Shown: positions 36,387 through 59,119 of the stretch, piece by piece
Layout of the letters: each line of letters starts with the position of its first letter
Position numbering within the stretch: the stretch's first letter is position 1
Source of the DNA: a virus
Strand: one strand, 5' to 3'
IMG/VR virus record: IMGVR_UViG_3300014204_000170
Span: 9,717-73,716 of that record
DNA length: 64,000 bases
Program-made: the position numbers and the translations under genes
The notes under the pieces: generated by a model
Databases searched by the model: none
What the model was told of the DNA's origin: nothing
The model's input: only the letters and a program-made list of their open reading frames with translations

Positions 36387-36797
36387 ATGGGATTTGATTT
36401 AATGGGACAAAAAGCAAAAAACAAAAAAGGAGAATACTTCAGAAATAATGTATGGTGGTGGAGAAATCTATGGTTCTTTGTTTGCTTAAACTGCGGAAGA
36501 TTCCTAACAAGAGAAGAAATGGATTATGGTAATTGGAACGCAGGAAAAAAAATAGTAAAACCAAAAGCTGGAAAAATCGTAAAAAAACTAAAAGAAACAA
36601 TAGAAAACGGAACAGCTAAAAAATTTGAAATAGAAATATCTAAAATAATAATAACTGCAAAAATACACAACAGAAAACTAGAAAAAGGAATGACTGACCC
36701 AAATTATGAAATAAACGAACATTATCCATTCACGGTCGAAAACTTAAAAGGATTTATACAATTCGTAGAAAATAGTGGCGGATTTCGAATCTTTTAA
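36387..36797 (+). CDS. hypothetical protein
   Basis: 136-aa ORF. Confidence 0.35.
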   Translation: MGFDLMGQKAKNKKGEYFRNNVWWWRNLWFFVCLNCGRFLTREEMDYGNWNAGKKIVKPKAGKIVKKLKETIENGTAKKFEIEISKIIITAKIHNRKLEKGMTDPNYEINEHYPFTVENLKGFIQFVENSGGFRIF

Positions 36798-37344: not shown

Positions 37345-37346
37345 TT

Positions 37347-38501: not shown

Positions 38502-40143
38502 AAAATTAAAAAAATTTATTAACAATATAATTATGCCAAATACAAAAAAAGAATTTGAATTTAAAATAGGAGCAGATCCTGAATTTGTTTTAACTATGCA
38601 AGGTAGAAAAGTAGATGCAAAACAAACCATGCAATTAGTTTTAAATAAAAAACCAGGATTTAAACCAACGAGAGACGATATGGGTTTTGATGTGGATCCA
38701 TTTGGAAATATAGGATGGGATGGAGCATCATCAACAGCAGAAATAAGACCAAAAGCAAGTAATACACCACAAGAAGTTGTAAATAATCTAGGAGGAATGT
38801 TTAAAGCTTTCGTAAAACATATAAGATTATGTGATATGTCAACAATATCAGAATATAGTTCAGTAGGAGGACATATTCACCTAGAAATTCCAAAAGGAGA
38901 AAAATGGTCAATAGAAAAAAAGAACACACTTCACAGAAGAATGGCTTCATTTTATTTACCACTATTAATCTCAGAAAATAAAACAAACCTAAACTTAAGA
39001 TTAAAACAAACTTACGGAGCACTAAAGGACAATAGAATAGAACAAAAATTCAAATATGAAGATGGATCTCCAGGATTCACATATGAATTTAGATGTCCTT
39101 CAGCTGAATGGTTAACAACACCAAAACTTGCTCAAGCAACAATGGCTTACATGGCAGTAATATATCATGAAATTTTAAAACATCCAAAAAACTTTACAAA
39201 ATTTAATGATATAGTTTATAAAAGTGATAAACAAGGAGACGCATTACAAACACTAGCAATCATGGAATTTGATATATTAACACAAAGTATATTAAATAAA
39301 GTTAAAAAATACATAAGAACATTCGAAATGTATGAATATTATAAAAATGAAATTGAATATCTATTTAATCCTAAACAGGTGATTAAAGATAAACAAAAAG
39401 CAGATTATAATATTGCAATAGGATGGAATCTAATAGGAAAAACAATTCCAAAGAAATCAGAAATCTTATCATCAAAGAAAAAAATTCAAGGAATAGCTGC
39501 TAAAAAAGATTTCGATAACCTAAAAGCTGTAATGAATATTCACTATAACGCTGACACAAATGTAGGACTTTTTGCAGATAGCTTAAAAGATAGAGTTGCT
39601 GCTTTCAATTGGAAATTAAAAAACAACTATTTCTTATTCGGAATGAGAAAAGGAATCACAACAATAATAGCTAGAAATCTAAAAAAAGAATATCTAACAG
39701 GTCAAAAAATAATCAAAACAGTTCTAGAAAAAGAACATATAGATAGATTATTTGATAAAATGGAAACAAAATTTAATAATAATAATGGAGTATTAAATAA
39801 TGCTACATTAGATTTTATTACAGGAAAAGTCAAAGATATGAGAGAATCAGTAATAGTAATAGGAATTCCATATTCAATGAGAATAGAAGAAAATATAAAA
39901 CCATTCTTAAATTTTATTTGGACACTTGAAAAAGGAGAAATCCCAAAAATAAATAAAAAAGATGAAATTAAATTAATCAATGATGTCGATTTGCCATTAG
40001 AGCAAAAAGGTGAAATTTATAAAATCTTAACAAAACAAATGGAGACACCACAAGAAATTATTATGGATGCAGGATCACACAGCTTACGCGCACATGAAAA
40101 TGCATTACATGAAATAATATGTGAAACAGAAAACAATTATTAA
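38476..40143 (+). CDS. glutamine-synthetase-like amidoligase family protein (paralog 2)
   Basis: IGADPEFVL, AEIRPKA and GGHIHLEIP match paralog 1. 555 aa with a C-terminal extension. Confidence 0.45.
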   Translation: MIHSTMTIKKLKKFINNIIMPNTKKEFEFKIGADPEFVLTMQGRKVDAKQTMQLVLNKKPGFKPTRDDMGFDVDPFGNIGWDGASSTAEIRPKASNTPQEVVNNLGGMFKAFVKHIRLCDMSTISEYSSVGGHIHLEIPKGEKWSIEKKNTLHRRMASFYLPLLISENKTNLNLRLKQTYGALKDNRIEQKFKYEDGSPGFTYEFRCPSAEWLTTPKLAQATMAYMAVIYHEILKHPKNFTKFNDIVYKSDKQGDALQTLAIMEFDILTQSILNKVKKYIRTFEMYEYYKNEIEYLFNPKQVIKDKQKADYNIAIGWNLIGKTIPKKSEILSSKKKIQGIAAKKDFDNLKAVMNIHYNADTNVGLFADSLKDRVAAFNWKLKNNYFLFGMRKGITTIIARNLKKEYLTGQKIIKTVLEKEHIDRLFDKMETKFNNNNGVLNNATLDFITGKVKDMRESVIVIGIPYSMRIEENIKPFLNFIWTLEKGEIPKINKKDEIKLINDVDLPLEQKGEIYKILTKQMETPQEIIMDAGSHSLRAHENALHEIICETENNY

Positions 40144-40163
40144 TTAAATGAATAAAAACAATT

Positions 40164-41570
40164 ATGTGTGGAATAATCGCAGGATTCAATAAAAGAACTC
40201 CTAAAAATAAAGACAAAAAAGCAATAAATGCAAAACCAATAAATGATTTTATTCTTAATCAATATGAAGACCAATACAATAGAGGTCAAAAAGGATTTGG
40301 AATCATTCGAATCGAAAAAAATGGAAATATAGAAATAGACAGAGCCACAGAACCTACAAAATTTCTATTAGATTTATATCTTAAACCATCAACTATGATA
40401 ATTGCCCATCACAGAACACCAACATCTACAGAAAATAAAATACAACAAACGCATCCAATTAAAATATCAAATAAAAAATTAAAATTTGATTATTATGCAG
40501 TTCATAATGGAATGATAAGCAATGATGAAGAATTAAAGAAAAAACACGAAAAATTAGGATTCGAATACACAACAAAATGTTTCGAATCAGTAAATCAATA
40601 CTACAAAACAAACAAAACAGAAAAATGGAATGATTCAGAAGCAATAGCTATAGAATTAGCATTATTCATAGAAGGAAAAATTAAAACAGTAAGAACAGAA
40701 AATGGAGCAGCATTTATAATTCTACAAGTAAACAAAAAAACAAACCTAGCTCAAAAATGTTTCTTTGGAAGAAATGGTTTTAATAGTATATTGAATATAT
40801 GTAAATCTAAAGGAAATTTACTAATCTCAAGTGAAGGAAAAGGAGAAGAAGTAAAAGAAGGTAAATTATTTTCATTTCACACAAGAGATAATAAAATGAA
40901 ATTAACTTCAATAGATATTCCATTCAAAAAAGAAGAAAAACCAATAGAAATTAAAACAGAAGCACCAAAAGAAATAGAATCTACAATGCCAAAAAATGTA
41001 GCTATTGTACCCGTAGAAAACGAAAAACCTAAAGTATTTGATAAGGTTATTACAGCAGTACGTAGTTGGATAGACATAGAAAAAGATCCAATTTTAGACT
41101 TAGATTTCGATGCAGCCGTATTTACTGATAAAAATTACAAAGAAACAATAAGTGAAGACTTCAAATATAAACTAAAAAATTGCACAACAGAAGAAATTAA
41201 AAGTACATTAGATGACTCATTAGATGAAGAAATTGCAAAAATAGAAGAATTATGTACAAACTTTAAAGAAATCTGTCAATGTAACAAAATAGAACTACCT
41301 GAAAGAAATTTCTTCATTTCACAAATAGCAAATTTATTCAGAACAATGGAAGCAATAACAGATATAGCTTCAGATGAATTTGCAATAGTTCAACAAAAAG
41401 AAGATGAAGAAACAATAGCTGATTATAATACAGGATTTGAATTAAACGATGATGGAAGTTATGGAAAAGGTCCTAAAAAATATGATAGCTCAAAACACAT
41501 AAATGTTGCCAATCATTACGGTCAAGGAATATATGATGACGATTATAACGATTTTAACAGGTTTGGATAA
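40164..41570 (+). CDS. class-II (Ntn) glutamine amidotransferase domain protein
   Basis: Starts MCGIIAGF (Cys2 nucleophile) and has AVHNGMISNDEEL, the HNG-I-x-N motif of GATase_2. Carries a long acidic C-terminal extension ending ...IYDDDYNDFNRFG. Confidence 0.6.
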   Translation: MCGIIAGFNKRTPKNKDKKAINAKPINDFILNQYEDQYNRGQKGFGIIRIEKNGNIEIDRATEPTKFLLDLYLKPSTMIIAHHRTPTSTENKIQQTHPIKISNKKLKFDYYAVHNGMISNDEELKKKHEKLGFEYTTKCFESVNQYYKTNKTEKWNDSEAIAIELALFIEGKIKTVRTENGAAFIILQVNKKTNLAQKCFFGRNGFNSILNICKSKGNLLISSEGKGEEVKEGKLFSFHTRDNKMKLTSIDIPFKKEEKPIEIKTEAPKEIESTMPKNVAIVPVENEKPKVFDKVITAVRSWIDIEKDPILDLDFDAAVFTDKNYKETISEDFKYKLKNCTTEEIKSTLDDSLDEEIAKIEELCTNFKEICQCNKIELPERNFFISQIANLFRTMEAITDIASDEFAIVQQKEDEETIADYNTGFELNDDGSYGKGPKKYDSSKHINVANHYGQGIYDDDYNDFNRFG

Positions 41571-43961: not shown

Positions 43962-44978
43962 TTAAACTAACCATTCAGGATTATTAACATACCACTGAAC
44001 AATAGTTTTTAATGATTCTTCAATTGAGAATGGATATTTCCAACCAATCTCTAGCATTTTTCCATTAGTTAAACCGTAATGCATGTCATGACCCTTTCTT
44101 ACTGTATTCGAATAAAATGATATAACTTCATAATTAAGTTCTTTTCCTATTATTCTAGCAACCAATTGAGCAAATTCCAAGTTATTTAATTGTTTTTCTC
44201 CTACAATATTAAATTTATTAGGTTTTAAATCACCATTTTCATAACTTGCAGGTTTTACATTTTTAATAATATATAAAATTGCATCAGCTTGATTACGCAC
44301 ATCTATATAAAATCTAGATCCAAAAGTTCCATCCTCTTTTGCATATATAGGCATTTTTTTACCTTCTTGAATATACTTTACAATTTTAGGAAGGAATTTA
44401 ACGGCATCCTGTCTTGTTCCTATTAAATTCATTGTGTTTGTAATAATTACAGGAACTCCATAGGTTCTCCAATAAGAAGTAGCTATAGCTTCTTGTGCGG
44501 CCTTTGAAGCAGCATAAGGATTACTTGGTAGTATTGCACTCCATTCTTTATGGGGTTCATTATTAACCATAGCTCCATAAACTTCATCCGTGGAAATTTG
44601 AATGAAAACTTCAGGTTTAATTTCTCTAGCTAACTCTAATATATTTAATATTAAAGCTACATTATTCTCAACAAAAGGAACAGGATCTTGTATGGACTGT
44701 TCTACATCTGACATAGAAGCAATATTAATAATATAATCTATCTTACCTATTCTTTGTTTTGTTATAGGTGTAAAAGGTGACTCTAAATCATGAGTAAGAA
44801 CTTCAACACGTTCTTTGTTTTTTTGGTAAACTTCACTATCTAAAATTCGTTCTGGAATACCCTTATGTTTCCAAGATGCAATACCCACTATATCCCAATC
44901 TGTAGTCTCAAGAATATGATCTACAAAATGTGAACCTGAGAATCCTCCAATACCTGTTAGTAATACTCTTTTATTCAT
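43962..44978 (-). CDS. rmlB: dTDP-glucose 4,6-dehydratase-like NAD-dependent sugar dehydratase/epimerase
   Basis: LLTGIGGFSGSHFV Rossmann motif and PYAASKAAQE (YxxxK). Confidence 0.65.
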   Translation of the reverse strand: MNKRVLLTGIGGFSGSHFVDHILETTDWDIVGIASWKHKGIPERILDSEVYQKNKERVEVLTHDLESPFTPITKQRIGKIDYIINIASMSDVEQSIQDPVPFVENNVALILNILELAREIKPEVFIQISTDEVYGAMVNNEPHKEWSAILPSNPYAASKAAQEAIATSYWRTYGVPVIITNTMNLIGTRQDAVKFLPKIVKYIQEGKKMPIYAKEDGTFGSRFYIDVRNQADAILYIIKNVKPASYENGDLKPNKFNIVGEKQLNNLEFAQLVARIIGKELNYEVISFYSNTVRKGHDMHYGLTNGKMLEIGWKYPFSIEESLKTIVQWYVNNPEWLV

Positions 44979-45967: not shown

Positions 45968-46268
45968 ATATAAATATTCATAATTAATAATTTAAACAGC
46001 ACAGTGGTTGGGAGTTGAACCCAAATGGATGATTTTGGAGATCTTCCTATGACCGTCACCCACCATAATGTGGGTAATCTAATACCCACCCAAAACTATT
46101 CTAATTCAGTCTTAACTTCTTCTTCTACGACAGACTCTTCAACTGGTGTTTCAACAACTGGTGTTTCAACAACTTCTGGTTCTGCTCCTATTTTTAAATC
46201 TTCATTCATAAATTTTTTATTTTTAACTTTTGATAATCATTCGACCAGTATTAATATAATAACATAGT

Positions 46269-46532
46269 TTAGAAAAAATCAAAATCATAATCTTTAATAC
46301 AGGAATTACTAACATACTCTTTTGATGTGCGAAGTTTTTTAATTGTTTTTCTAGCATCTCTCATTATCTTTGTTCGAGCACTTCGTGTTTTTCTTTTATA
46401 TTCTTTTAAATACTCCTTATAAGAATTTTTACCATGATTGATTTTTTCTTCTGTTTCAATCTCTATTTCTTTTTTACAATTATTAATTCTACTATTCATA
46501 AAATAGAGGTTAGATAACCATAATAATATCAT
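46269..46532 (-). CDS. hypothetical basic protein
   Basis: 87-aa ORF. Confidence 0.3.
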   Translation of the reverse strand: MILLWLSNLYFMNSRINNCKKEIEIETEEKINHGKNSYKEYLKEYKRKTRSARTKIMRDARKTIKKLRTSKEYVSNSCIKDYDFDFF

Positions 46533-46791
46533 CCTCTAGTGTCATCATATAAGTCTTTCCATCAACTTGTACAGCTTTACCATATTGGAAAGTAACTACA
46601 TCATCTTTTTTTACACACATTGGCAATAATTCTCCATTGTTGTTTTTTTTACCTTCACCAACTTCAAATACTTTACCTGTCATGTATTCACCCATTTCTT
46701 CTTCTTTAGCCAAGATAACTCCTGAGGCTGTTTTTTTCTCATTTCGATCTACTTCTATTAAAACTCTATTTCCTAATAATTTGATACTCAT
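46510..46791 (-). CDS. groES: co-chaperonin GroES
   Basis: 93 aa; LGNRVLIEVDRNEKKTASGVILA...GKVFEVGEG fits the Cpn10 pattern. Lies adjacent to GroEL. Confidence 0.6.
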   Translation of the reverse strand: MSIKLLGNRVLIEVDRNEKKTASGVILAKEEEMGEYMTGKVFEVGEGKKNNNGELLPMCVKKDDVVTFQYGKAVQVDGKTYMMTLEDDIIMVI

Positions 46792-46811
46792 AAATTTTAT
46801 TTAATTAACTA

Positions 46812-47324
46812 TTAATCCCACAAACTCCTAATATATTTTCCAAACAAAATTAACCCTTCTTCTACTTTTAAATTATGTTCTTTTAATTGTTCAGCTGTCA
46901 TACCTCTAGTAAATCTATTTTCCATTTCATTTTCGTCTTCCCAAACGCTATCAAAAGCAAATTCAATCTTTTTAAGAATCATAAGCCAAGCTCCTGGATC
47001 TGATGCAAATTCAACTGGAAGTGACATACCATGTTCCTCATAATTCTTTACAAATCTCTTTAATGGAATATAAGTTTTTCTTACGATAAAACTACCAAGA
47101 TTCCAAACATCAGAATCAGAATATCCTCTAAAGATCTCCTGCCATTTTATTTTAATATCATAAGGCCAATTTTTAATTTCTAAAATAAACCTATACCAAA
47201 TAAAATCTTTTAAATCAAGAAATATTCTAACAAGAAAAGGTTTTAAGGCCCTTCTTTTTTCATCTTCCTCTAATTGTTCTAAAAAGTTTTTTGTACCTTT
47301 TAAATATTCTTCTTTATCTATCAT
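46812..47324 (-). CDS. hypothetical protein
   Basis: 170-aa ORF downstream of a consensus promoter. Confidence 0.4.
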   Translation of the reverse strand: MIDKEEYLKGTKNFLEQLEEDEKRRALKPFLVRIFLDLKDFIWYRFILEIKNWPYDIKIKWQEIFRGYSDSDVWNLGSFIVRKTYIPLKRFVKNYEEHGMSLPVEFASDPGAWLMILKKIEFAFDSVWEDENEMENRFTRGMTAEQLKEHNLKVEEGLILFGKYIRSLWD

Positions 47325-47459
47325 GTTTTAAATTTTAATTAATAATAAAGTATTTAATCGTAGGAATTTAACAGGTGACGATTTCTCGTTCTCCATCATA
47401 TTGATTATTTTGATGAGTTCCTACGATTAATACTTTTACCCCTAAGCAGGACTATCTTA

Positions 47460-47488
47460 AGTATATACCTTTCGATTTAACTTGTCAA
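47460..47488 (-). promoter_or_regulatory. consensus promoter TTGACA-17-TATACT (minus strand)
   Basis: Plus strand reads AGTATA...TGTCAA; the conserved spacer is AGTTAAATCGAAAGGTA. Confidence 0.6.
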
Positions 47489-47499
47489 GTAATTAGTGA

Positions 47500-49146
47500 T
47501 TATCTCATTCCATCTGGAAGTATTTTTGGCTCTTCTGCCATACAAACTTCTGTTGTCAATAATATACCACCAGCACTTGAAGCATTTTCAATTGCACTTC
47601 TTTCTACCTTTGTAGGATTTACAATTCCAGAATTAAACATACTATCTACATATTCATTTCTCAAGGCATCGAATCCTCCACCCTCTGACATCGTTTTAAC
47701 GTAATCTACTATAGTTTGACCATCTAGACCACAATTTGTTGCAATACAGTACAGAGGAGCTTCTAGAGCCTTTGAGAGGATACTAAAACCTATAAGCTCA
47801 TCCTTTGTATACTTACCTTCTGAAGTTTCACGCATTATAGCTTCTGATGCTCCAATCAAGGCTACACCTCCACCAGAAACAATACCTTCCTCCAAAGCTG
47901 CTTTTACCGAGTTTACAGCATCTTCTATTTTTAATTTTTGATATTTAGTATCTTGTTCTGTAGCAGCTCCAACTTTTATAATTGCAACCCCACCAGACAA
48001 CTTAGCAATTCTTTCTTCAACCTTAAGTTTATCGTGTTTTGATTCTAATTTCGCAAGTTCAGATTTAGCTAACGCAATACGAGCATCGATAGCTTCCTTT
48101 GTTCCTTTACCTCCAATGATTGTTGTTTTGTCTCTTGTTGACACAACACGAGTTGCAGATCCCAAATCAGATAATTTTACCTTACTCAATGACATACCTA
48201 AATCACTAGCAATAAAGTTGGCACCAACTACAGTTGCAATATCTTCTAGATAATCTCTCTTTCTAAGTCCAAAACCAGGAGCCTTAATAGCTAGAACTGT
48301 TAAAGCACCACGCATTTTATTTACAACGAAAGTATTTAAGGCTTCTCCCACAACATCCTCTGCAATAATTACAAGTTCTCTTTTTCCTGAGTTCATAACT
48401 TCTTCAAGCAATGGAACAATCTCATCAATAGCACCAAGTTTCATATCTGTAACTAAAATAGGAACATCTTTACACACTGCTTCAACTCTACTTATATCTG
48501 TAACCATGTAAGGAGAAATATAACCTTTTTCAAACTCTAATCCTTGAGAAACTTCAGATGAAATTCCAACAGTTGGAGATTCTTCTACTGTTATAACTGA
48601 ATCAACTCCTAATTGTTTAATAGTTTCTGAAATCTTTTTACCAATCTCTTCTGATTCTGATGAAATTATTGCTACTTGTGTAATTTCTTCATCTGTATTA
48701 ATTGGCTTTGCAATAGATTTCAAATATGCAACTCCGACTTTCGAAGCTTTCTCGATACCGTTCTTTATTCCAATAGCATTTACACTTTCTTTTTTAGTAA
48801 AAAATTTATACCATGGTTTTTTACTATTCATAACCTTCATACCTTCATTGAAAATAGATTGCATAATAATAACAGAAGTCGTTCTTCCGTCTCCTGCATT
48901 ATCATTTGTTTTTTGTGCAACTTCTTTTGTAACATTTGCACCCATATTTTGTATAGGATCTTGTAATACAACTTCTCTACTAATCGATCCACTATCATTA
49001 GCAATCGTGGGACCACCAAATCCTCGATCGAATATTACATTACGTCCCTTTGGACCAATTGTAACCTTTGATATATTACCAACTGTATTAACACCAACTG
49101 CTAATTCATCCCTTCCTAAATTCCCGAACAATATTTGTTTTGACAT
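47500..49146 (-). CDS. groEL: chaperonin GroEL (Cpn60)
   Basis: 548 aa; conserved blocks TTATVLA-like DGTTTSVII, GGGVALI and a C-terminal PKILPDGM tail. Confidence 0.85.
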   Translation of the reverse strand: MSKQILFGNLGRDELAVGVNTVGNISKVTIGPKGRNVIFDRGFGGPTIANDSGSISREVVLQDPIQNMGANVTKEVAQKTNDNAGDGRTTSVIIMQSIFNEGMKVMNSKKPWYKFFTKKESVNAIGIKNGIEKASKVGVAYLKSIAKPINTDEEITQVAIISSESEEIGKKISETIKQLGVDSVITVEESPTVGISSEVSQGLEFEKGYISPYMVTDISRVEAVCKDVPILVTDMKLGAIDEIVPLLEEVMNSGKRELVIIAEDVVGEALNTFVVNKMRGALTVLAIKAPGFGLRKRDYLEDIATVVGANFIASDLGMSLSKVKLSDLGSATRVVSTRDKTTIIGGKGTKEAIDARIALAKSELAKLESKHDKLKVEERIAKLSGGVAIIKVGAATEQDTKYQKLKIEDAVNSVKAALEEGIVSGGGVALIGASEAIMRETSEGKYTKDELIGFSILSKALEAPLYCIATNCGLDGQTIVDYVKTMSEGGGFDALRNEYVDSMFNSGIVNPTKVERSAIENASSAGGILLTTEVCMAEEPKILPDGMR

Positions 49147-51230: not shown

Positions 51231-51485
51231 TTAAAGTATTATTGTTTTAACTTGTTTATAATCTTGTTTTTCACTTACATCTTCTGCTAATTCATGAGGA
51301 CCTTCCCACCAGACACTTTCATCATTGTAATCCAAGCACATGTCTACGATAGTTCCACTTGGTACAATATCACAATAACCACCTTCATATCCATTTGTCA
51401 TAACTATTGTATCTTCTGGTAATTTTTCAAGAAACTTAATTAATTGTTTTATGTTCATTATATTCACCAATTTCTGGCTTATCAT
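51231..51485 (-). CDS. hypothetical protein
   Basis: 84-aa ORF overlapping the upstream gene's end. Confidence 0.3.
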   Translation of the reverse strand: MISQKLVNIMNIKQLIKFLEKLPEDTIVMTNGYEGGYCDIVPSGTIVDMCLDYNDESVWWEGPHELAEDVSEKQDYKQVKTIIL

Positions 51486-52164
51486 TATTAATAATCAAAT
51501 ATTCATTTCCTGGCTCCAAAGTATCAATAAAAAATATATCATCAGTAATCTGGATATGTTTTTGGTGAGTATGTCCAACAACCTGTTTAAATCCTACTAT
51601 TTTATCTTCTAGTAAACTTTTAGGTCTAACCCAGAAAGGTGATTGAGTTACATCATCTCCATAATTACTATGATTTTTCCCTTCTATAAAACAAAATGAT
51701 CTAGGGTAATCAAGAAAAATACGATTAACTGAATCTTCTATAGTTTTGATATTTCCCCCACTATTACGCAACCAAGTTTTAGTTATTCCAGCATGAGTAA
51801 ATACCCAATTTTTATAAGAATAACAAGCTTGAAGCATTCCATCTTCTATTGCTAGTTCTAATAGAGAAGAAATTTTAGATTTTTTATCAGCTTGATATCC
51901 ACTGTAGTGTTCTCCGACATATGATAAATATTGATAATCATGATTTCCAAGTAATAAAACAACCTTATCTGGACTACCATACTTAAAAGCCAAGATATTT
52001 TTAAAATTCTCTAACTGTTGTTCGAATGGTACCTCAAAACTATCAAAATAATCTCCAAGAAAAATCACCTTACTAAAGGGTTGTTTAATTATTTCTTGCC
52101 ACTTATTTAATCCATGGACATCTCCTAAGGCAATTATTTTATTTTTTACTTGATTTTTTTTCAT
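51436..52164 (-). CDS. calcineurin-like metallophosphoesterase (Ser/Thr phosphatase family)
   Basis: IIALGDVHG, FLGDYFDSFE, LLLGNHDYQ, THAGIT and VVGHTHQ phosphoesterase motifs. Confidence 0.65.
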   Translation of the reverse strand: MKKNQVKNKIIALGDVHGLNKWQEIIKQPFSKVIFLGDYFDSFEVPFEQQLENFKNILAFKYGSPDKVVLLLGNHDYQYLSYVGEHYSGYQADKKSKISSLLELAIEDGMLQACYSYKNWVFTHAGITKTWLRNSGGNIKTIEDSVNRIFLDYPRSFCFIEGKNHSNYGDDVTQSPFWVRPKSLLEDKIVGFKQVVGHTHQKHIQITDDIFFIDTLEPGNEYLIINNDKPEIGEYNEHKTIN

Positions 52165-52169
52165 TTTAA

Positions 52170-52592
52170 TTAACTATTTAAATGCTTAATTATCCTAAAC
52201 ATAATATCATCTGTTATACCTAAATCAAATGATGTATTAAAGAAATTTGGTAATTGTTCTAAAAGAATATCTATATCATCATCAATAATGGCATATTTTT
52301 TAACTTCTGGATGCGCAGTTAACCAAGCGGCTATTTCATCACCTCTTTCTTTTTTATTTAGATCAGTTGACTCTATTGTGGAATCAAATACTTTACATAT
52401 TTTTTCTTCGACCTTAGATACTAACACAGGACTAAGTCTCCACATAGAAGACAACACAACATTACATCCTGTTGATAATTGTATAGCCTTTATTTTATTT
52501 GCCAAAATTTCATCTATTTCATCAATTGGATTTCTCGCAAAAGATTCCTTATTGTTAACCACGCCATCTATATCGAGGAATAAGATTTTCAT
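52170..52592 (-). CDS. HAD-like phosphatase
   Basis: LFLDIDGVVNN motif I; 140 aa. Confidence 0.5.
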   Translation of the reverse strand: MKILFLDIDGVVNNKESFARNPIDEIDEILANKIKAIQLSTGCNVVLSSMWRLSPVLVSKVEEKICKVFDSTIESTDLNKKERGDEIAAWLTAHPEVKKYAIIDDDIDILLEQLPNFFNTSFDLGITDDIMFRIIKHLNS

Positions 52593-52624
52593 ATTTTATA
52601 TTTCATTTAATTAATAATAACTTA

Positions 52625-52653
52625 AGTATATACCCATTCGATTTACTTGTCAA
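52625..52653 (-). promoter_or_regulatory. consensus promoter TTGACA-17-TATACT (minus strand)
   Basis: Spacer AGTAAATCGAATGGGTA; family motif ACTTGACAAGT. Confidence 0.6.
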
Positions 52654-52661
52654 GTGTAAAG

Positions 52662-53018
52662 TTATACCTTCTTTTTAGTTTCTTTTATTTGTTTATGTTC
52701 CTTGTGCCATTCATATGCCATTACATTCCAAATAATCGCACTTGCGTGATCCTCATCTTTATCACCCCTTATCCATGCAATAAAATGTCTCCAAGCACTA
52801 GCAATAAATCTTTTATATTCAATCTCAGAATTGGCTTTTCTCCAGTTATTTTCATCATATTTTACAGCACCTCTTTGATATAACCCAGCTAGTCTTGTAA
52901 GTAATTCATGAGGTATTAAATCATATCTAGGTTTACCTTCTGCTGTGTCTCTCTGAAAACCTCCTTCATAATTAACTCTTTTTCCACTATCTTTTGTTGT
53001 GTAAATTTTTTCTTGCAT
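52662..53018 (-). CDS. phage dNTP pyrophosphohydrolase-like protein (MazG/dGTP-diphosphohydrolase N-domain-like)
   Basis: KPRYDLIPHELLTRLAGLYQRGAVKYDENNWRKA resembles the conserved block of phage nucleotide pyrophosphohydrolases; called from memory. Confidence 0.35.
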   Translation of the reverse strand: MQEKIYTTKDSGKRVNYEGGFQRDTAEGKPRYDLIPHELLTRLAGLYQRGAVKYDENNWRKANSEIEYKRFIASAWRHFIAWIRGDKDEDHASAIIWNVMAYEWHKEHKQIKETKKKV

Positions 53019-53122: not shown

Positions 53123-54136
53123 TTATTTATCCCAAGTAAACCCTTCTCCAAAATGACCAAATTGTGCAGTCTTTTCAAATTGTGGTTCTCTTAATTTAAG
53201 AAACTTAATAATACCCTGTGGTGTTAAGTCATAATTATTTTCTTTTAATAAGTCAATATTAATTATTCTATCATGACCAGACATATCACTAGACTCACCA
53301 CTTATCTGGACTGTTGCCATGACTGGTTGTATAACTCCAATAGCATATGCAATTTTTACTGTTACGTCTTTTTCTGTAGGATTTTTTTTTATATAATCTA
53401 CAGCTATCTTGCGAGCCATATATGCACCAGAACGATCAACCTTAGTTGCATCCTTACCTGAGAAACATCCACCACCAATAGCAACTTGTGGTCCATAATT
53501 ATCTACTATAAGTTTTCTACCAGTTAAACCTGTATCTGCTTCAAATCCTCCTTGTACCCAATCTCCTGCTGGATTTGCGAGAACTGAAAACTTAATTATA
53601 TCTTCTTCTTCAAGACCTAAAAATGCGTACCATGTAAAAATAGCTTCTTTTAATTCTTTACTTGTAGTATTTTGAAAACTAGCAATAATTGTCTCGATTT
53701 GATTTTCATCATTTAGTGTTATTTGCGTTTTTCCATCATAAGGATACATTGCAAATAAAAACTTACACAATGATCTTGCTAAAAATAATTCTTGAGGTAT
53801 CATTTCTTTATTATCATTACAAGCATAACCAACCATAATACCTTGGTCACCTGCACCTTCTGCATCAACACCACGAGCAATTTCTGAACTTTGTTGTACT
53901 ATATTAACTTGAACACCATATTGATTGCCCGCTATACCTTGCGCAATTTCTCGGATATTAATATACGCCTTAGTTGTTAATTCTCCTGTAATCGTTATTA
54001 TTCCATGCCCTCCCATGGTTTCTACTGCAACTCTACTCATAGGATCTTGTTTTAAACACGCGTCAAGAATCGCGTCGCTTATCCTGTCACATAATTTATC
54101 TGGGTGTCTTGGCGTTACCGCCTCTGCTGTTTTCAT
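53123..54136 (-). CDS. metK: S-adenosylmethionine synthetase
   Basis: HPDKLCDRISDAILD, GAGDQGIMVGYA and GGGCFSGKDATKVDRSGAYMAR signature blocks. Confidence 0.85.
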   Translation of the reverse strand: MKTAEAVTPRHPDKLCDRISDAILDACLKQDPMSRVAVETMGGHGIITITGELTTKAYINIREIAQGIAGNQYGVQVNIVQQSSEIARGVDAEGAGDQGIMVGYACNDNKEMIPQELFLARSLCKFLFAMYPYDGKTQITLNDENQIETIIASFQNTTSKELKEAIFTWYAFLGLEEEDIIKFSVLANPAGDWVQGGFEADTGLTGRKLIVDNYGPQVAIGGGCFSGKDATKVDRSGAYMARKIAVDYIKKNPTEKDVTVKIAYAIGVIQPVMATVQISGESSDMSGHDRIINIDLLKENNYDLTPQGIIKFLKLREPQFEKTAQFGHFGEGFTWDK

Positions 54137-54307
54137 ATATATTATTTAAGAATGATGCAGTAAAACTGGGGGATGTAGGATAGTACTTTTGTTGTTTGAT
54201 TTTCCTTGCTCAAACTACAAGGTCATTTTAGTTTAACATTACCTATGTAATACTTAGGATACTACGGATTGCTACTGTATCCCCCCATTTTGCTGCACCA
54301 CTCCTTA

Positions 54308-54820
54308 TTATTTTTTAATTGTTGATAAAATTTTTAAGACCTTTTTTAATCTCTTTTCTTTTGAACCAGTTATAGTATGATAGTTAAATATACCAGAATT
54401 TAAAATATGTTGAATAGCCTTATCTATATTCTTTTGGAATTCTATATCAGTAGATCTAAGTCCATCATTCTCTATGGGAAATTCAATAGGTATATAAAAT
54501 ACAATATCATAATGAGCTTTAGCTAACCAGTAATTGATATAATTTAAAAGTTTTTCGTTGCCTTCAAATAAAACCATACAATAAGCAAGAATATCAATAA
54601 TACCTCTATCTGCAATAAAACTTTCCTCTAACTCTAATAATATTTGACGTTGCAACATTATTCTTTCAAATTCTTCTGTTGCTCCACTGTCTAAGCTGTA
54701 TCCTTCTTCTATCATTTGTCTAGCTACTTCTGGTAATATTTTTATCCATATACTACTTGAAACCTCTTTCACTAAAGTTGTTTTTCCAACACCTTGTGCT
54801 CCTGTAAATAAGATTTTCAT
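54308..54820 (-). CDS. P-loop kinase-like protein
   Basis: ILFTGAQGVGKTTL Walker A; 170 aa. Confidence 0.4.
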   Translation of the reverse strand: MKILFTGAQGVGKTTLVKEVSSSIWIKILPEVARQMIEEGYSLDSGATEEFERIMLQRQILLELEESFIADRGIIDILAYCMVLFEGNEKLLNYINYWLAKAHYDIVFYIPIEFPIENDGLRSTDIEFQKNIDKAIQHILNSGIFNYHTITGSKEKRLKKVLKILSTIKK

Positions 54821-56028
54821 TATGATATTCTATATTTAACTTGCTCTTCGGTTTCTTTATCTATAGAAATTTTGAGAGCTTCTAATTTTAATAATGCTAC
54901 ATTTTTGTCTATTTCAGTAGGTACATTATAAACCCTATTATCTTTTACTATTAATGGATGCTTAACTAAATATTCCAAACTTAATGCTTGGTTAGCAAAA
55001 GACATATCCATTACTTCTGATGGGTGTCCTTCTGCTGCTGATAAGTTAACAAGTCTACCTTCTGATAATAAATTAATTCTAGTTGGAAAATCTGGATCAG
55101 ATGGATCATCAATTAATGTATATTCAGTTATATCGTCACTAATTTTGGTGATTTTTTTTGCATTAATTTCAAGAAATTTTCTATTTATTTCTATGTCAAA
55201 ATGTCCAGAATTTGCAATAATAGCTCCATCTTTTAGATTATTGATTTCCTTATTTAACACATTTACACTCCCTGTAACTGTTACAATTATATCAGCCTTA
55301 AAAGCAGCCATCTTCATTTCCATTACTTTAAAACCATCCATATGAGCCTGTAACGCTCTAATAGGGTCTATTTCGGTAATAATAACGTTACATCCCATCC
55401 CGCGTGCTCTTTGTGCTAAACCTTTTCCACAAAAACCATAACCAGCAACCACAAATGTTTTACCAGCCAGGAGAACATTAGTAGATCTTATTATTCCATC
55501 AAGTGTACTTTGTCCAGTACCATACACATTATCAAATAAATGTTTTGTATCTGCATCATTAACTGCAATAATGGGATATTTCAAATCCATATGTTTTATA
55601 CGGGTAACTCCAGTTGTTGTTTCTTCAAGTCCTCCTTTAGGAAAAATATTACTTGTTTTATGAATTAAAGTAGTTAGATCTGCTCCATCATCTATTATAT
55701 AATCTGGATTAACATCTGCTACAAATTTTAAACCCATATCATATTCTTCTTGGCCCATGCCCTTTTTACCACGAATAAACATTTTTCCATAAGTTTTTAA
55801 ATAATCAACAACATCATCTTGCGTAGAAAGAGGGTTAGAAGCACATGCTACAACATTAGCACCACCTGCTTGAAGTGCTAATAATAAAATAGCTGTTTCT
55901 TTTGTTAGATGTAGACATACACCAACTTTTAATCCAGAAAATGGTTTAGTTTTCTCAAACTGTTCTGTTATTTTTGCCATTACGGGCATTTGTTTTTTTG
56001 TCCATTCTATTTTATGTTCTATATTCAT
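54820..56028 (-). CDS. ahcY: adenosylhomocysteinase (SAH hydrolase)
   Basis: 402 aa; NAD-binding VAGYGFCGKGLAQRARGMG, ITEIDPIRALQA, and a C-terminal KLEALKISID-type helix. Confidence 0.8.
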   Translation of the reverse strand: MNIEHKIEWTKKQMPVMAKITEQFEKTKPFSGLKVGVCLHLTKETAILLLALQAGGANVVACASNPLSTQDDVVDYLKTYGKMFIRGKKGMGQEEYDMGLKFVADVNPDYIIDDGADLTTLIHKTSNIFPKGGLEETTTGVTRIKHMDLKYPIIAVNDADTKHLFDNVYGTGQSTLDGIIRSTNVLLAGKTFVVAGYGFCGKGLAQRARGMGCNVIITEIDPIRALQAHMDGFKVMEMKMAAFKADIIVTVTGSVNVLNKEINNLKDGAIIANSGHFDIEINRKFLEINAKKITKISDDITEYTLIDDPSDPDFPTRINLLSEGRLVNLSAAEGHPSEVMDMSFANQALSLEYLVKHPLIVKDNRVYNVPTEIDKNVALLKLEALKISIDKETEEQVKYRIS

Positions 56029-56029
56029 T

Positions 56030-56257
56030 TTATTTAATACTATATACTACTGGTTTACCCGCTTTTAATGCCTCCTCTCTTTCCATTTTACGAATTTTGA
56101 AACGCGCTATTTTTTTTATTACTCTTTTTTTAATTCCTTCTTTTTTATTATTCCAAGCCTTAGAATTAAAAGGTGAACCTAATGTTCCTTTCATTAATTT
56201 TTCTTCCTTAGATTGCATTGCTACTGCTTTCTTTTTGAATATTTTGTGATTTTTCAT
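56030..56257 (-). CDS. hypothetical basic protein
   Basis: 75-aa ORF. Confidence 0.3.
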   Translation of the reverse strand: MKNHKIFKKKAVAMQSKEEKLMKGTLGSPFNSKAWNNKKEGIKKRVIKKIARFKIRKMEREEALKAGKPVVYSIK

Positions 56258-56365: not shown

Positions 56366-56725
56366 TTAATTTGAATATCTATTAATACAATCCTGTAAAT
56401 TTTCAGCTTGTTTTACTGCCTTTAAACACTCTATCTTAGCACTTGAATCTGTAATTGATTCACAATCTTTATTAAGTATTATCTTATTTTCTTCTGTTTG
56501 TTGAGTTTTATCAGTAGTTTCCGATTTAGACCTATCAAATTTATCAGATATAGGTGATTCCTCTTTTGTTATTTGTTTTATTTTATCTGACATCTTACAT
56601 CCATCATGTGTTGGATCTGCTTTACATCTAGCAGTTTTCAAACTAGCCAAAACTACAGTAGATAATATTCCAATAATAGCAATAACAACAAGTAATTCAA
56701 TTAAAGTAAATCCTTTATTTTTCAT
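56366..56725 (-). CDS. type IV pilin / pseudopilin-like protein with class III (prepilin peptidase) signal
   Basis: N-terminus MKNKG|FTLIELLVVIAIIGILSTVV is the canonical prepilin cleavage/methylation motif; the C-terminus has a Cys pair. Confidence 0.6.
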   Translation of the reverse strand: MKNKGFTLIELLVVIAIIGILSTVVLASLKTARCKADPTHDGCKMSDKIKQITKEESPISDKFDRSKSETTDKTQQTEENKIILNKDCESITDSSAKIECLKAVKQAENLQDCINRYSN

Positions 56726-56726
56726 A

Positions 56727-57596
56727 TTATTTTAATTGAATAAGAGGAACAGTACTCCCACCCATAACAGTTGTAGGATAATGTCCATCCCATTGTTTGA
56801 TTGCTTGTAACGCTACATAATCAGCACCACCTTGACTATTAACAGCCTGTGCTTGAATCTTAATGGCTTCTGCTTCACCTTTTGCTTGAGCAACCCTCTG
56901 TTGAGCTTTATATTCTTCAATAGCAAGATTATTTTTTTCAGTTAATGCGTTTTGTTCTGCAGTAACCTTAAGCTCAATTGCCTTAGAGTATGTTGTAGAA
57001 AATTGAAAGTTTGTAACTGAAAATCTTTCTAAAACTGCACTCTTCGCTGTAAATTGAGTTGCTAATGCTACATTTACCTTATCAGAAAATTCTGCACGTT
57101 TAGTTACCAATTCTTCTGCTGTATATTGAGCTGAAGTTGATTTGACTATTTCACGAATCATTGGTTCTACAACATTTGATTGATAGTTTTCTACTGAACT
57201 ATATTGAGAATAAATTTCCTGAACCTTTGTTGCATCTACATGATAGTTTACAACTACGCCAATTGATACATCCTGAAGGTCCTTGGAAGCTCCGAATAAA
57301 TTATCGGTAGCTACTTTGTTTTCTCCGCTATCTCCTGCTTTATCATAATTAATTGTTAATGTCTTAATTGACATTTTATGGACTTGTTCAACGATAGGCA
57401 TCTTAAAATAAAGACCTTGTTGAACAGTTCCTACTACAGCACCGAAACGAGTTTTAACACCCATTTCACCTGCGCTTATGTTACCCATTGAACCAAATAA
57501 TACACATAAGATTAATATTGCCAAAATAATGTGTCCTATAATCTTACCTAATTTAAAATCACCTTTTTCCTCGTCGTAATAATTGAATATTTTCAT
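56727..57596 (-). CDS. SPFH/band-7 (prohibitin/HflK-like) membrane protein
   Basis: N-terminal TM segment followed by an SPFH-like core (GEMGVKTRFGAVVGTVQQGLYFKMP...) and a coiled-coil tail. Confidence 0.6.
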   Translation of the reverse strand: MKIFNYYDEEKGDFKLGKIIGHIILAILILCVLFGSMGNISAGEMGVKTRFGAVVGTVQQGLYFKMPIVEQVHKMSIKTLTINYDKAGDSGENKVATDNLFGASKDLQDVSIGVVVNYHVDATKVQEIYSQYSSVENYQSNVVEPMIREIVKSTSAQYTAEELVTKRAEFSDKVNVALATQFTAKSAVLERFSVTNFQFSTTYSKAIELKVTAEQNALTEKNNLAIEEYKAQQRVAQAKGEAEAIKIQAQAVNSQGGADYVALQAIKQWDGHYPTTVMGGSTVPLIQLK

Positions 57597-57682: not shown

Positions 57683-57711
57683 AGTGTATACCTATTCGAT
57701 TTACTTGTCAA
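57683..57711 (-). promoter_or_regulatory. consensus promoter TTGACA-17-TACACT (minus strand)
   Basis: Spacer AGTAAATCGAATAGGTA. Confidence 0.55.
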
Positions 57712-58366
57712 GTGATAACCCTAGATATTCCATATATTTATTATATTTTCTTTCCAATCTAAGATTTATTGAATCTTTATATACTAATTTTAAAAGTTTC
57801 AATGATTCTTTTGTGGAATACTTAACCAAAAAAGCTGTTCTGTTTTTTGTTAAATTTTTTAATCTTAATCCACTTAGTTCATTAATTTCTTTTTGTAAAC
57901 TTTTTAAAAAAGGAATAGAAGCACTAACAATTGAAACTCTTAAAAATGTATATGTTTTATTTTTATATTTATCTTGCTGTGTATAAACAGAACCATCCCC
58001 ATCAATAACTCCTCTTAAAAAATGAAAAAAATATTTTTTAGGGATTTTTAGCATTCTTACTATTTTACTTTTATTGGGTTTCAACCCTAATTGAATTAAC
58101 TTATTATAAATTTTCCTACTAGAAAGATACAATGTATATTGTATTTTAGTTCTATTTTTAGGTAAATACCCTTTAATAGGATATGTATTTTCAAGTTTTT
58201 GGGCAATTTTTTCTAATATTTCCTTATCTACACTTCCTATTTTCACTTCTCCATTCCTTTTAGAAATATTACCATCAGTTAAAATATATCCTAAAATATA
58301 GGCATTTTCTTTTGAAAAACTATTAAAAAACTCATCGTTTATTTTATATTTTCTTTTTGTATTCAT
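57701..58366 (-). CDS. LAGLIDADG homing endonuclease (free-standing, two-motif)
   Basis: LGYILTDGNI and LRGVIDGDGSV dodecapeptide motifs. Confidence 0.65.
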   Translation of the reverse strand: MNTKRKYKINDEFFNSFSKENAYILGYILTDGNISKRNGEVKIGSVDKEILEKIAQKLENTYPIKGYLPKNRTKIQYTLYLSSRKIYNKLIQLGLKPNKSKIVRMLKIPKKYFFHFLRGVIDGDGSVYTQQDKYKNKTYTFLRVSIVSASIPFLKSLQKEINELSGLRLKNLTKNRTAFLVKYSTKESLKLLKLVYKDSINLRLERKYNKYMEYLGLSLDK

Positions 58367-58417: not shown

Positions 58418-59119
58418 CTATCTTTTTTCGTAAATCCATTTAATTGTCTCAAACAAACTTTTAGGAATACCACAATCTGACCAGAAATTATCTTTTTTCA
58501 TATGATATATTTCACATTTTTTAGATTTTAAATAAAAATTATTAACAGAAGTAATTTCTATTTCCCCCCTAGTTGATGGTTTTAATGTTTTTATTAAATC
58601 AAACACATCGTTTGGATAAACATATAGACCAGTAACAACATCTCCCTTTTCTATATCCTTAGGTTTTTCAACGATTTTATCTCCAATTAAAACTCCAAAC
58701 CTTGAAGCTCCCTCCATTTGTTTTACTAAAATACTTGAATACCCGACTGGTGTAATTTTATTTAAAAATATATTATTTATATTATCATAAATATTATCTC
58801 CAAGAATAACCATAACATTATCATCACCAACAAAACATTCAGCCAATCCTAAAGCTTGAGCTATTCCACCTGCATTTTTTTGAACCTTGTATGTTATATT
58901 TACACCAAAATTCGAACCATCTTCTAAAAATTCAGCAATTTGCCCTATATGTTCTCCACCAGTTATAATCATGATATCCACAATACCAAAACTCTTTAGG
59001 GTATTTAATGGATACGTAATCATAGGTGTATTCAAAAGAGGTACCATATGTTTATTCATATATTTTGTAGCTGGTAATAAACGTGTTCCTTTCCCCCCAC
59101 AAAGTAAAACTCCTTTCAT
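58418..59119 (-). CDS. rmlA: glucose-1-phosphate thymidylyltransferase-like sugar nucleotidyltransferase
   Basis: LLCGGKGTRLLPAT (G-G-x-G-T-R-L) and VILGDNIY. Confidence 0.65.
   Translation of the reverse strand: MKGVLLCGGKGTRLLPATKYMNKHMVPLLNTPMITYPLNTLKSFGIVDIMIITGGEHIGQIAEFLEDGSNFGVNITYKVQKNAGGIAQALGLAECFVGDDNVMVILGDNIYDNINNIFLNKITPVGYSSILVKQMEGASRFGVLIGDKIVEKPKDIEKGDVVTGLYVYPNDVFDLIKTLKPSTRGEIEITSVNNFYLKSKKCEIYHMKKDNFWSDCGIPKSLFETIKWIYEKR

Follow-up and report, generated by a model that had tools for sequence, protein, structure and literature searches.

An S-adenosyl-L-homocysteine (SAH) hydrolase (AhcY), a small P-loop kinase and an S-adenosylmethionine (SAM) synthetase (MetK) are encoded head to tail in a phage genome, and the same gene order recurs in related phages and in bacterial chromosomes. 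Our main reading, to which we give a probability of about 0.55, is that this is one operon common to a lineage of phages with genomes of roughly 90–110 kb and to their probable Patescibacteria hosts, and that it serves SAM supply, SAH clearance and adenosine salvage. In the literature searched, neither the conserved cassette of three genes nor its kinase appears to have been described, and nothing relevant turned up on either a link between AhcY and the Pfam family AAA_28 or a phage AhcY-MetK cassette; phage metK and viral ahcY are already known.

The 64,000-nt stretch of DNA analysed here (the window) is part of a 109,737-bp metagenome contig, the two ends of which carry a 141-bp repeat according to coordinate arithmetic. 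Because of this repeat, the genome is apparently circular, with a length of ~109.6 kb. Its viral origin, assumed in the original prediction, is confirmed by the presence of portal, large terminase and capsid genes (Table 1). Phage genes, including replication genes, flank the cassette on both sides, which is the setting expected of viral auxiliary metabolic genes (AMGs). The gene content of the phage further comprises 22 tRNA genes, RtcB and additional RNA-repair genes.

Table 1 Features of the window discussed in the text (positions in nt of the window).
Feature	Position	Strand	Remarks
Major head protein	1941-3218		phage structural gene
Portal	7257-9425		phage structural gene
Large terminase	9465-10910		phage packaging gene
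Class-I SAM-dependent methyltransferase, Methyltransf_11 type, possible SAM consumer	18976-19665	-	Pfam Methyltransf_11, E = 2.7e-12
Divergent SAM-methyltransferase-fold protein, possible SAM consumer	28728-29411	+	closest to tRNA/rRNA methyltransferases
MetK, methionine adenosyltransferase (SAM synthetase)	53123-54136	-	337 aa, short form
Non-coding spacer between kinase gene and metK	54137-54307	-	171 nt, long closing stem
P-loop nucleoside-kinase-like protein, proposed adenosine kinase	54308-54820	-	170 aa, stand-alone
AhcY, S-adenosyl-L-homocysteine hydrolase	54820-56028	-	402 aa, short 'archaeal-type' form

The SAM synthetase and the SAH hydrolase

MetK and AhcY had been predicted to lie on the same strand with a P-loop kinase between them, and this arrangement stands, the order being AhcY-kinase-MetK. 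The 683 nt that separate the metK and ahcY genes consist of the kinase gene and a 171-nt spacer, and the stop codon of ahcY overlaps the ATG start codon of the kinase gene in the sequence TAATG.

All three S-AdoMet synthetase Pfam domains are found in MetK above their gathering scores (PF00438, PF02772 and PF02773, with E values of 1e-40, 1e-23 and 1e-12, respectively), and the protein matches solved MetK structures (E = 5e-62) and PHROG 1569 (E = 1e-98). It retains residues H14, D16, E42, D118, K165, D238, R244, K245, K265, K269 and D271 of E. coli MetK, the reference sequence of which was verified to be identical to that of PDB 7ll3, and its catalytic, metal-binding and phosphate-binding residues are invariant in 14 of 14 phage relatives (the phage MetK and AhcY sets used in these residue checks are 57–83% identical overall). 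The score of MetK against the NCBIfam equivalog TIGR01034 is below the cut-off (289.2 versus 309.4) because of deletions: 13 residues of the N domain are missing, stretches of the central domain are trimmed, and the C terminus is 14 residues shorter. A shortened gating loop was considered as a peculiarity of the phage enzyme and rejected, as host, Streptococcus-phage and other MetKs depart from the E. coli enzyme by the same 5 residues.

AhcY contains both the AdoHcyase (PF05221) and AdoHcyase_NAD (PF00670) Pfam domains and passes both NCBIfam equivalog cut-offs (TIGR00936, 498.7 versus 497.6; NF004005, 507.9 versus 275). Compared with the human enzyme, which served as a reference after verification against PDB 1li4, it retains H55, D131, E156, T157–159, K186, D190, N191, H301 and H353 together with the GxGxxG NAD motif. 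These catalytic residues are nearly invariant, being kept in 14–16 of the 16 phage relatives. The domains, matches and residues of MetK and AhcY point to two catalytically competent enzymes of the proposed identities, in agreement with the original prediction, which had named degenerate catalytic residues as the sign of the contrary; the residues checked are intact in both proteins.

The nucleobase motif of AhcY is HxTxE (H40-L-T42-K-E44), and it is present in 16 of 16 phage and 23 of 23 host copies of the enzyme. Since HxTxE(Q) marks SAH-preferring enzymes and HxExK marks those that prefer S-inosylhomocysteine (SIH) (PMC10978960), the predicted substrate of the phage AhcY is SAH, not S-inosylhomocysteine, and its predicted product is adenosine. 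The protein is similar to the archaeal-type short SAH hydrolases of Thermotoga, Pyrococcus and Sulfolobus (PMC10978960) in its length, in the lack of the C-terminal Lys/Tyr tail (it stops before the segment that carries Lys426 and Tyr430) and in its best solved relatives, which belong to this short group (E = 1e-107 to 1e-117), but it differs from them in having HxTxE instead of HxExK and in being encoded by a phage. In the long eukaryotic and bacterial form, Lys426 and Tyr430 of the tail contact the NAD of the neighbouring subunit; the tail-less archaeal-type enzymes are still active.

A P-loop kinase linked to AhcY

The product of the middle gene matches AAA_28 from end to end (E = 5.5e-21), and its structural model displays a P-loop NMP-kinase-like, nucleoside-kinase fold of the NadR RNK-domain type, with a Walker A motif and a lid. 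In close homologues the gene is linked to ahcY without exception. The ahcY gene is located immediately upstream and on the same strand in 25 of 25 loci of GTDB species representatives of Nomurabacteria/Paceibacterota with a kinase at least 42% identical to that of the phage, and counting six phage loci the linkage extends to 31 of 31. Neither ahcY nor metK is found within 5 kb in any of 27 loci of more distant AAA_28 proteins, the neighbours of which (HD domain, MurG, trigger factor, YopX, phosphoglycerate mutase, PanE) share no theme. Considering the fold and the exclusive, conserved association with AhcY, the earlier suggestion that the gene encodes a nucleoside or adenosine kinase is reasonable, and the protein may phosphorylate adenosine to AMP.

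The adenosine kinases known so far are of the ribokinase/PfkB type in their fold, whereas the modelled cassette kinase has a P-loop NMP-kinase-like one. The protein may thus work like an adenosine kinase without being a member of that family; if it does, it replaces the PfkB adenosine kinase as a non-homologous enzyme. A broader proposal, which we advance tentatively and at somewhat less than even odds, is that the AAA_28 protein is the first of a new family of P-loop (NadR-RNK-like) adenosine kinases. In Nomurabacteria/Paceibacterota and in the phages of this group it would stand in for the PfkB kinase and form, with AhcY and MetK, a self-contained operon for SAM supply, SAH clearance and adenosine salvage, which phages would have captured to sustain methylation and purine economy in hosts of minimal metabolism.

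The best structural match of the kinase is the nicotinamide-riboside kinase domain of NadR, which counts against the adenosine reading. The enzyme could be a nicotinamide-riboside kinase, with NAD+ salvage supplying the tightly bound NAD+ of AhcY or countering an NAD+-depleting defence in the manner of the phage NARP3 system, which consists of PnuC and a NadR-like protein (PMC13464706). However, the identity to NadR is 13–18%, the TIGR01526 score is 28.7 against a cut-off of 341, and the phage protein is a single domain to which no NMN adenylyltransferase (NMNAT) is fused. The window ORFs scanned and 20 kb of the flanks contain no NMNAT domain, and no PnuC-type nicotinamide-riboside transporter was seen among the annotated genes of the window and flanks; the product of such a kinase, NMN, is not by itself NAD+. 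In further contrast to NadR and NARP3, the kinase is linked to AhcY and MetK and not to NAD genes, none of which occurs in those of the 31 close loci that have annotated neighbours. We consider the nicotinamide-riboside reading to be of low probability. The L. lactis NadR structures, which were sought for their nicotinamide-riboside-binding residues, have an empty RNK site.

Distribution and origin of the cassette

The AhcY-kinase-MetK order is shared by six or more contigs of related phages (L043, L044, L099, L100, L104 and L105), and tight packing of the three genes, with 1-nt spacers or 4-nt overlaps, is seen among relatives. In five or more phage contigs besides that of the window, which derive from different samples, the cassette occupies the same syntenic place between a primase-helicase block and a SNF2-GroEL block. 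In the related phage L101, metK comes straight after ahcY and the kinase gene is missing, so some contexts do not require the kinase. In 19 of the 25 Nomurabacteria/Paceibacterota loci described above, MetK is encoded downstream of the kinase. Several of the host contigs are 238–813 kb long, which is a chromosomal size, and in the Nomurabacteria locus L045, PNPase, ribosomal protein S15 and RNase Y are encoded beside the trio.

As the gene order recurs in phages and, with all three genes, in 19 of the 25 host species, we regard the cassette as a Patescibacteria operon carried by the phages of these bacteria. The simplest reading, and a point missed by the original prediction, is that the phage carries a housekeeping module of its host rather than a phage-specific invention. 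The host itself is probably an ultra-small bacterium of the Patescibacteria, from the Nomurabacteria/Paceibacterota group, in which the closest cellular kinases are found. Patescibacteria (CPR) make up a large and mostly uncultured share of bacterial diversity; they have a minimal metabolism, cells of this type are generally held to be incapable of de novo purine synthesis, and their phages are barely characterised.

The relatives that carry the cassette came from exact-protein look-ups. Scans of IMG/VR with the kinase alone and with MetK alone returned no relatives, and a scan with AhcY returned 39 loci at 47–53% identity, with MetK nearby in one of them (L007) and the kinase in none.

In neighbour-joining trees, the phage MetKs and two short MAG-binned copies (L051 and L053) group together in 200 of 200 bootstraps, and this group joins the Nomurabacteria MetKs in 197 of 200. 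A nested deletion in the N domain, of 8 residues in hosts and 13 in phages, agrees with the MetK tree. The phage and host clades of AhcY are each monophyletic but are not sisters (0 of 100 bootstraps), and the deep nodes of this tree are unresolved. Because the phage clade does not adjoin that of Nomurabacteria, capture of the three genes en bloc from the present host lineage is unsupported for AhcY, and we do not use the AhcY phylogeny as an argument for it. The grouping of phage and host kinases has a support of 28%.

Host DNA could in principle have entered a phage-like contig by misassembly, mis-binning or transduction, in which case the cassette would have no role in the phage, and part of the short-MetK clade does come from deposited MAG bins with the names Nomurabacteria or Bacilli. 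We regard such an origin as extremely improbable considering (i) the apparently circular contig, in which the cassette is surrounded by phage genes, (ii) the conserved syntenic position in the other phage contigs, and (iii) the separate clades, with conserved active sites, that are formed by the phage copies of AhcY (96 of 100 bootstraps) and MetK (199 of 200).

Methylation and the role of the cassette

The original prediction interpreted the genes as an activated-methyl cycle. However, no methionine synthase (MetH, MetE), BHMT or other homocysteine-consuming gene was found in ~84 of the 109.6 kb (the 64-kb window and 20-kb flanks). The cycle is therefore open and, as the phage recycles no homocysteine, we describe the function of the cassette as SAM supply, SAH clearance and adenosine salvage. 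The equilibrium of the AhcY reaction favours SAH synthesis, and in eukaryotes adenosine kinase drives hydrolysis by removing adenosine.

In the mechanism that we propose, MetK would form SAM from methionine and ATP, host or phage methyltransferases would convert SAM to SAH, AhcY would hydrolyse SAH to homocysteine and adenosine, and the NadR-RNK-like kinase, presumably coupled to AhcY at the level of translation, would convert adenosine to AMP. This last reaction would pull the thermodynamically unfavourable AhcY reaction forward, so that SAH, a toxic product of methylation, stays low and methylation continues, and would send the adenosyl moiety back to the adenylate pool, which would be relevant in cells that make no purines de novo. 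The phage copy of the cassette may in this way maintain both methylation potential and purine salvage during the infection of a metabolically minimal host. The scheme is analogous to the coupling of SAH hydrolase (SAHH) to a PfkB-family adenosine kinase (ADK) in eukaryotes and actinobacteria, where SAHH-made adenosine is turned into AMP, SAH hydrolysis is sustained and adenosine is recycled.

The purpose originally ascribed to the genes was heavy methylation of the phage DNA as an escape from restriction-modification or BREX-type defence. A connection of this kind is suggested by an N6_N4 DNA methyltransferase encoded at most 4–5 kb from the cassette in two related phages (L044 and L101) and by Streptococcus phages such as Javan3, in which metK lies a short distance upstream of genes for adenine and cytosine DNA methyltransferases. 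For the phage described here the idea is unsupported: in the ~84 of 109.6 kb scanned, a coverage that itself leaves room for such a gene, no N6_N4_Mtase, Dam, Dcm or similar canonical DNA methyltransferase was found, and the two ORFs of methyltransferase type look like enzymes that act on small molecules or on tRNA/rRNA. The Methyltransf_11-type ORF, with the motif I LNLGCG, is weakly similar in NCBIfam to small-molecule methyltransferases of the UbiE, BioC and ArsM type. Furthermore, the trio forms an operon in the chromosomes of at least 19–25 host species, so its presence can be explained without DNA modification as a purpose peculiar to the phage. The type I and type III restriction systems and BREX themselves depend on SAM, so additional SAM is not obviously a means against defence. 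Taken with this evidence, a DNA-methylation function is unlikely.

Alternatively, the SAM could be used mainly for RNA, the cassette sustaining tRNA and rRNA methylation for phage translation. The tRNA and RNA-repair genes of the phage and a Trm1/TYW2-like methyltransferase are the arguments for this alternative, which we judge to be quite unlikely as the principal function.

Set against adenosine salvage in a host-derived operon, earlier descriptions of these genes in viruses are different in emphasis. The AMGs metK and ahcY reported by Kieft et al. (bioRxiv 10.1101/2021.01.05.425418) are likewise borne by phages and have conserved active-site motifs, but here the two genes are in one operon with an uncharacterised kinase, mirroring the host operon; that study read organosulfur and cysteine-methionine AMGs as serving sulfide production and describes no such cassette. 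In deposited phages, metK is common and ahcY rare: of 50,697 records, 155 have the former, most of them Streptococcus prophages whose enzyme is likewise short (~340 aa), and 3 have the latter. The presence of phage metK should not always be taken for an anti-restriction device. The retention of the module in host chromosomes and throughout a phage clade marks SAM/SAH homeostasis as a bottleneck worth carrying genes for, and the kinase provides a concrete, cheaply checked functional prediction for AAA_28, a widespread family of 'ATPases of unknown function'. If the AAA_28 protein is an adenosine kinase, it would fill a gap in SAH disposal by bacteria that have no Pfs/LuxS or PfkB kinases, and the compact set of three enzymes could serve for SAM regeneration in vitro.

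A scan of the cassette for promoters and terminators was uninformative in this AT-rich DNA. The spacer between the kinase gene and metK was considered as a conserved regulator or riboswitch upstream of metK, and this idea was rejected: the spacer has no Rfam match at E ≤ 1, neither the window nor any of the loci fetched contains a second copy or homologue of it, and it is missing in the closest relatives, where the two genes are 1 nt (L104) or 41 nt (L105) apart. When folded together with the kinase stop codon (54137-54310, 174 nt), it has a minimum free energy of −51.3 kcal/mol, compared to −30.1 ± 3.8 kcal/mol for shuffled sequences (z = −5.6). The spacer is probably an insertion specific to the phage of the window, with a very stable local structure.

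The cassette and its active sites

All three ORFs of the AhcY–kinase–MetK cassette lie on the minus strand where the original prediction, a phage activated-methyl cycle that would serve heavy methylation of DNA, RNA or proteins, had placed them. Pfam domain assignments support the MetK and AhcY identities, and the phage context is borne out by a portal, a large terminase and a major head protein encoded in the window. AhcY scores above two NCBIfam equivalog cut-offs, and MetK (289 bits against a cut-off of 309) falls slightly under, as it lacks about 47 residues relative to the E. coli enzyme. The ahcY gene ends in a stop codon that overlaps the start of the kinase gene (TAATG).

Features of the window, with positions, strand and assignment
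Feature	Position	Strand	Remarks
MetK (SAM synthetase)	53123-54136	−	337 aa; all three Pfam S-AdoMet synthetase domains
Kinase–metK spacer	54137-54307	−	171 nt
P-loop kinase	54308-54820	−	170 aa; Pfam AAA_28 match over full length
AhcY (S-adenosylhomocysteine hydrolase)	54820-56028	−	402 aa; Pfam AdoHcyase and AdoHcyase_NAD
Unrelated ORF	56030-56257		75 aa
Prepilin-type protein and SPFH/Band_7 protein	56366-57596	−	119 aa (prepilin-type)
LAGLIDADG homing endonuclease	57701-58366	−	free-standing
RmlA-like nucleotidyltransferase	58418-59119
118-aa protein	within 51436-53018	−	PF18909; N-terminal domain of dATP/dGTP diphosphohydrolases
HAD_SAK_2 phosphatase	within 51436-53018	−	'Swiss-army-knife RNA repair'
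Calcineurin-like phosphoesterase	within 51436-53018	−
Class-I methyltransferase	18976-19665	−	Methyltransf_11-type; weak similarity to UbiE, BioC, ArsM-type enzymes
Methyltransferase-fold ORF	28728-29411	+	no family match; model pLDDT 88.9
tRNA array	20137-23968	+	21 genes in 3.8 kb
tRNA-Trp	45999-46069	−
phiEco32-like COOH-NH2 ligases	30590-31783, 38476-40143	+
RtcB	32996-34192
Peptidase_C26/GATase	35089-35958	+
GATase_6 protein	40164-41570	+	weak match
RmlB-like dTDP-glucose 4,6-dehydratase	43962-44978
GroEL and GroES	46510-49146	−	548 and 93 aa

Using as residue references E. coli MetK (identical to PDB 7ll3) and human AHCY (identical to PDB 1li4), we found no sign of the degenerate catalytic residues that had been named as a possible weakness of the prediction. 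Window MetK retains H14, D16, E42, D118, K165, D238, R244, K245, K265, K269 and D271 (E. coli numbering), and window AhcY retains H55, D131, E156, T157-159, K186, D190, N191, H301 and H353 (human numbering) together with the NAD glycine motif. This AhcY has no C-terminal Lys/Tyr tail, a trait shared with its best relatives of solved structure, the short enzymes of archaeal type. Across phage sequences that share only 57-83% overall identity, the checked residues hardly vary in AhcY (16 sequences) and do not vary at all in MetK (14 sequences), as expected under purifying selection on function. The nucleobase motif of window AhcY is HxTxE, which experiments have linked to enzymes that prefer SAH to S-inosylhomocysteine (PMC10978960), and the nucleoside released should be adenosine.

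The spacer upstream of metK folds very stably, with a closing stem of ~26-28 bp (MFE −51.3 kcal/mol, z −5.6 versus shuffles, computed over the 174 nt of 54137-54310). Neither an Rfam match nor a second copy was found, and the spacer is absent from the closest relatives, phage contigs L104 and L105. Candidate explanations are a MITE-like insertion bounded by terminal inverted repeats, a site for RNase III and a local regulator.

An operon shared by phages and Patescibacteria

Homologues of the kinase form two groups, one on phage-like contigs (50-69% identity) and one from Candidatus Nomurabacteria/Paceibacterota (~45%). Exact-protein look-ups recovered the trio with unchanged gene order in six related phage contigs, L043 (90 kb), L044 (36 kb), L099 (103 kb), L100, L104 (45 kb) and L105 (98 kb), and in five of the six, L044 being the exception, it sits between a primase-helicase block and an SNF2-GroEL block. 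In a different phage, L101, MetK follows AhcY directly, with no kinase. The same order recurs on a 191-kb Paceibacterota chromosomal contig (L045), beside PNPase, ribosomal protein S15 and RNase Y. When GTDB was scanned with one genome for each species, 52 kinase-homologue loci came up. Every locus with a kinase of at least 42% identity has AhcY as its immediate upstream neighbour in the same orientation (25/25), and most have MetK downstream too (19/25), several of the AhcY-positive contigs being of chromosomal size (238-813 kb); the other 27 loci, with more distant AAA_28 proteins, have neither gene within 5 kb. The three genes therefore constitute a housekeeping operon in the Nomurabacteria/Paceibacterota lineage, of which a clade of phages has its own copy.

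Gene order and MetK sequences together make a common origin of the cassette well supported. In a neighbour-joining tree with outgroups limited to E. coli, a Streptococcus phage and L007 (a phage locus with AhcY and MetK nearby), phage MetKs cluster with two short MAG-binned copies in 200/200 bootstraps, and this group joins the 354-aa Nomurabacteria MetKs in 197/200; a nested N-domain deletion, of 8 residues in hosts and 13 in phages, agrees with the tree. The trees do not show that the three genes were captured together in one recent event: the phage (96/100) and host (100/100) AhcY clades are each monophyletic and are not sisters, and the phage kinases are nearest to AhcY-linked host forms with weak support (28%). 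The two MAG contigs, L051 and L053 (labelled bacterium or Nomurabacteria), have AhcY and kinase genes of host type together with a short MetK of phage type (321-324 aa); they could represent a donor lineage, phage-to-host transfer or mis-binned mobile DNA.

Among 50,697 deposited phage records, metK (PHROG 1569) is common (155, mostly short forms in Streptococcus prophages) and ahcY rare (3, one an 8.8-kb fragment). Both viral genes are listed among organosulfur auxiliary metabolic gene families (bioRxiv 10.1101/2021.01.05.425418), and we found no description of an AhcY-AAA_28-MetK cassette in phages or Patescibacteria in the open-access texts searched. The cassette thus belongs to a known class, phage auxiliary metabolic gene cassettes, and the function of the kinase is a separable and more novel claim. 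The enzymes themselves are ordinary; the value lies in an operon conserved in hosts and phages alike and, if true, in a new adenosine-kinase family as a testable prediction in a poorly understood bacterial radiation.

The kinase and the use of SAM

The confident AlphaFold model of the kinase (pLDDT 91.9) is a stand-alone nucleoside-kinase-type domain. As it carries no NMN adenylyltransferase domain, and neither the window nor its flanks showed a PnuC or NMNAT gene, it falls outside the definition of NadR and of the phage NARP3 system; published NadR structures offered no pocket residues usable for comparison. Phage and host copies retain Walker A, a DR motif, D76, Y80, a DGxR lid motif and R157 without exception. 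At equilibrium the AhcY reaction lies towards SAH synthesis, and adenosine must be removed to draw it the other way. Since adenosine is the predicted product of the coupled upstream AhcY, the most economical hypothesis is an adenosine kinase, to which we assign a probability of roughly 40-45%; the original suggestion of a nucleoside or adenosine kinase stays plausible. Such an enzyme would phosphorylate the adenosine released by the translationally coupled AhcY and favour SAH hydrolysis, making the pair a functional analogue of the eukaryotic SAHH-ADK pairing, although PfkB adenosine kinases have a different fold.

What did not stand were the closed cycle and the DNA-methylation purpose. In the window and 20 kb of flanks (~84 of 109.6 kb) we found no methionine synthase; with no route for recycling homocysteine, the 'cycle' stays open. 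Nor did we find a canonical DNA methyltransferase domain there. That the cassette fuels heavy methylation of phage DNA to escape restriction-modification or BREX is thus unlikely: an N6_N4 DNA methyltransferase lies near the cassette in some relatives (L044, L101), but the evidence visible here does not point to DNA methylation. Of the two methyltransferases proposed, the first is a class-I enzyme of Methyltransf_11 type, and the second ORF has the fold in its model, nearest to the tRNA methyltransferases Trm1 and TYW2 and the rRNA methyltransferase RlmO, without a family match. A faint Methyltransf_23 gene lies just beyond the window. RNA is a plausible candidate for the methyl acceptor. The best reading of the cassette is SAM supply, SAH clearance and adenosine/purine salvage, which the phage would maintain in a host of minimal metabolism.

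Neighbouring genes, genome and host

The three genes directly downstream of metK (51436-53018) are all present in L104, and the phosphoesterase also adjoins the cassette in L043, L099 and L105; with RtcB, they suggest an RNA-repair or nucleotide-pool module. Just upstream of ahcY lie a protein with a prepilin-type N-terminal methylation motif and an SPFH/Band_7 protein, a pair similarly placed in L100 and L104. N-methylation of type IV pilins consumes SAM, and pili play a central part in how Patescibacteria live. Directly upstream of ahcY, the closest relatives encode a small cupin (L104 5685-6017; L105 5625-5969, weakly matching acireductone dioxygenase of methionine salvage) near a class-Ib aminoacyl-tRNA synthetase; the 75-aa ORF occupies this position in the window.

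The exact proteins of the window are located on one 109,737-bp metagenome contig (ENA ERZ27247350, k141_2421641). The window wraps round the contig ends, which by coordinate arithmetic repeat 141 bp, the assembly k-mer length, and we read the genome as circular, ~109.6 kb. Among deposited phages, all relatives of its capsid protein are remote (25-29% identity). From the cassette affinities, the low G+C (about 27-41% in 2-kb windows) and the prepilin-type gene, we infer a Patescibacteria host.

The window additionally encodes a primase-helicase, RtcB, GroEL/GroES, which stay beside an SNF2 helicase in related contigs, and 22 tRNA genes covering 17 amino acids, which is many for a phage of 110 kb. 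The ligases and GATase-type proteins, interspersed with unknown ORFs (30590-41570), may form a peptide or amide-bond modification module. An RmlB-like dehydratase is also present, and the homing endonuclease separates the SPFH gene from the RmlA-like gene. In the flank of the same contig (L103 12185-12373), ~1.8 kb past the window end, a gene of 62 aa has a match to the Acb2/Tad1 hairpin family (PF24729), whose members act as sponges for nucleotides that signal in defence; this hints at anti-CBASS/Thoeris activity in a Patescibacteria phage. It is followed by genes for RecA, Mre11/Rad50-like proteins, peptide deformylase and a class II ribonucleotide reductase.
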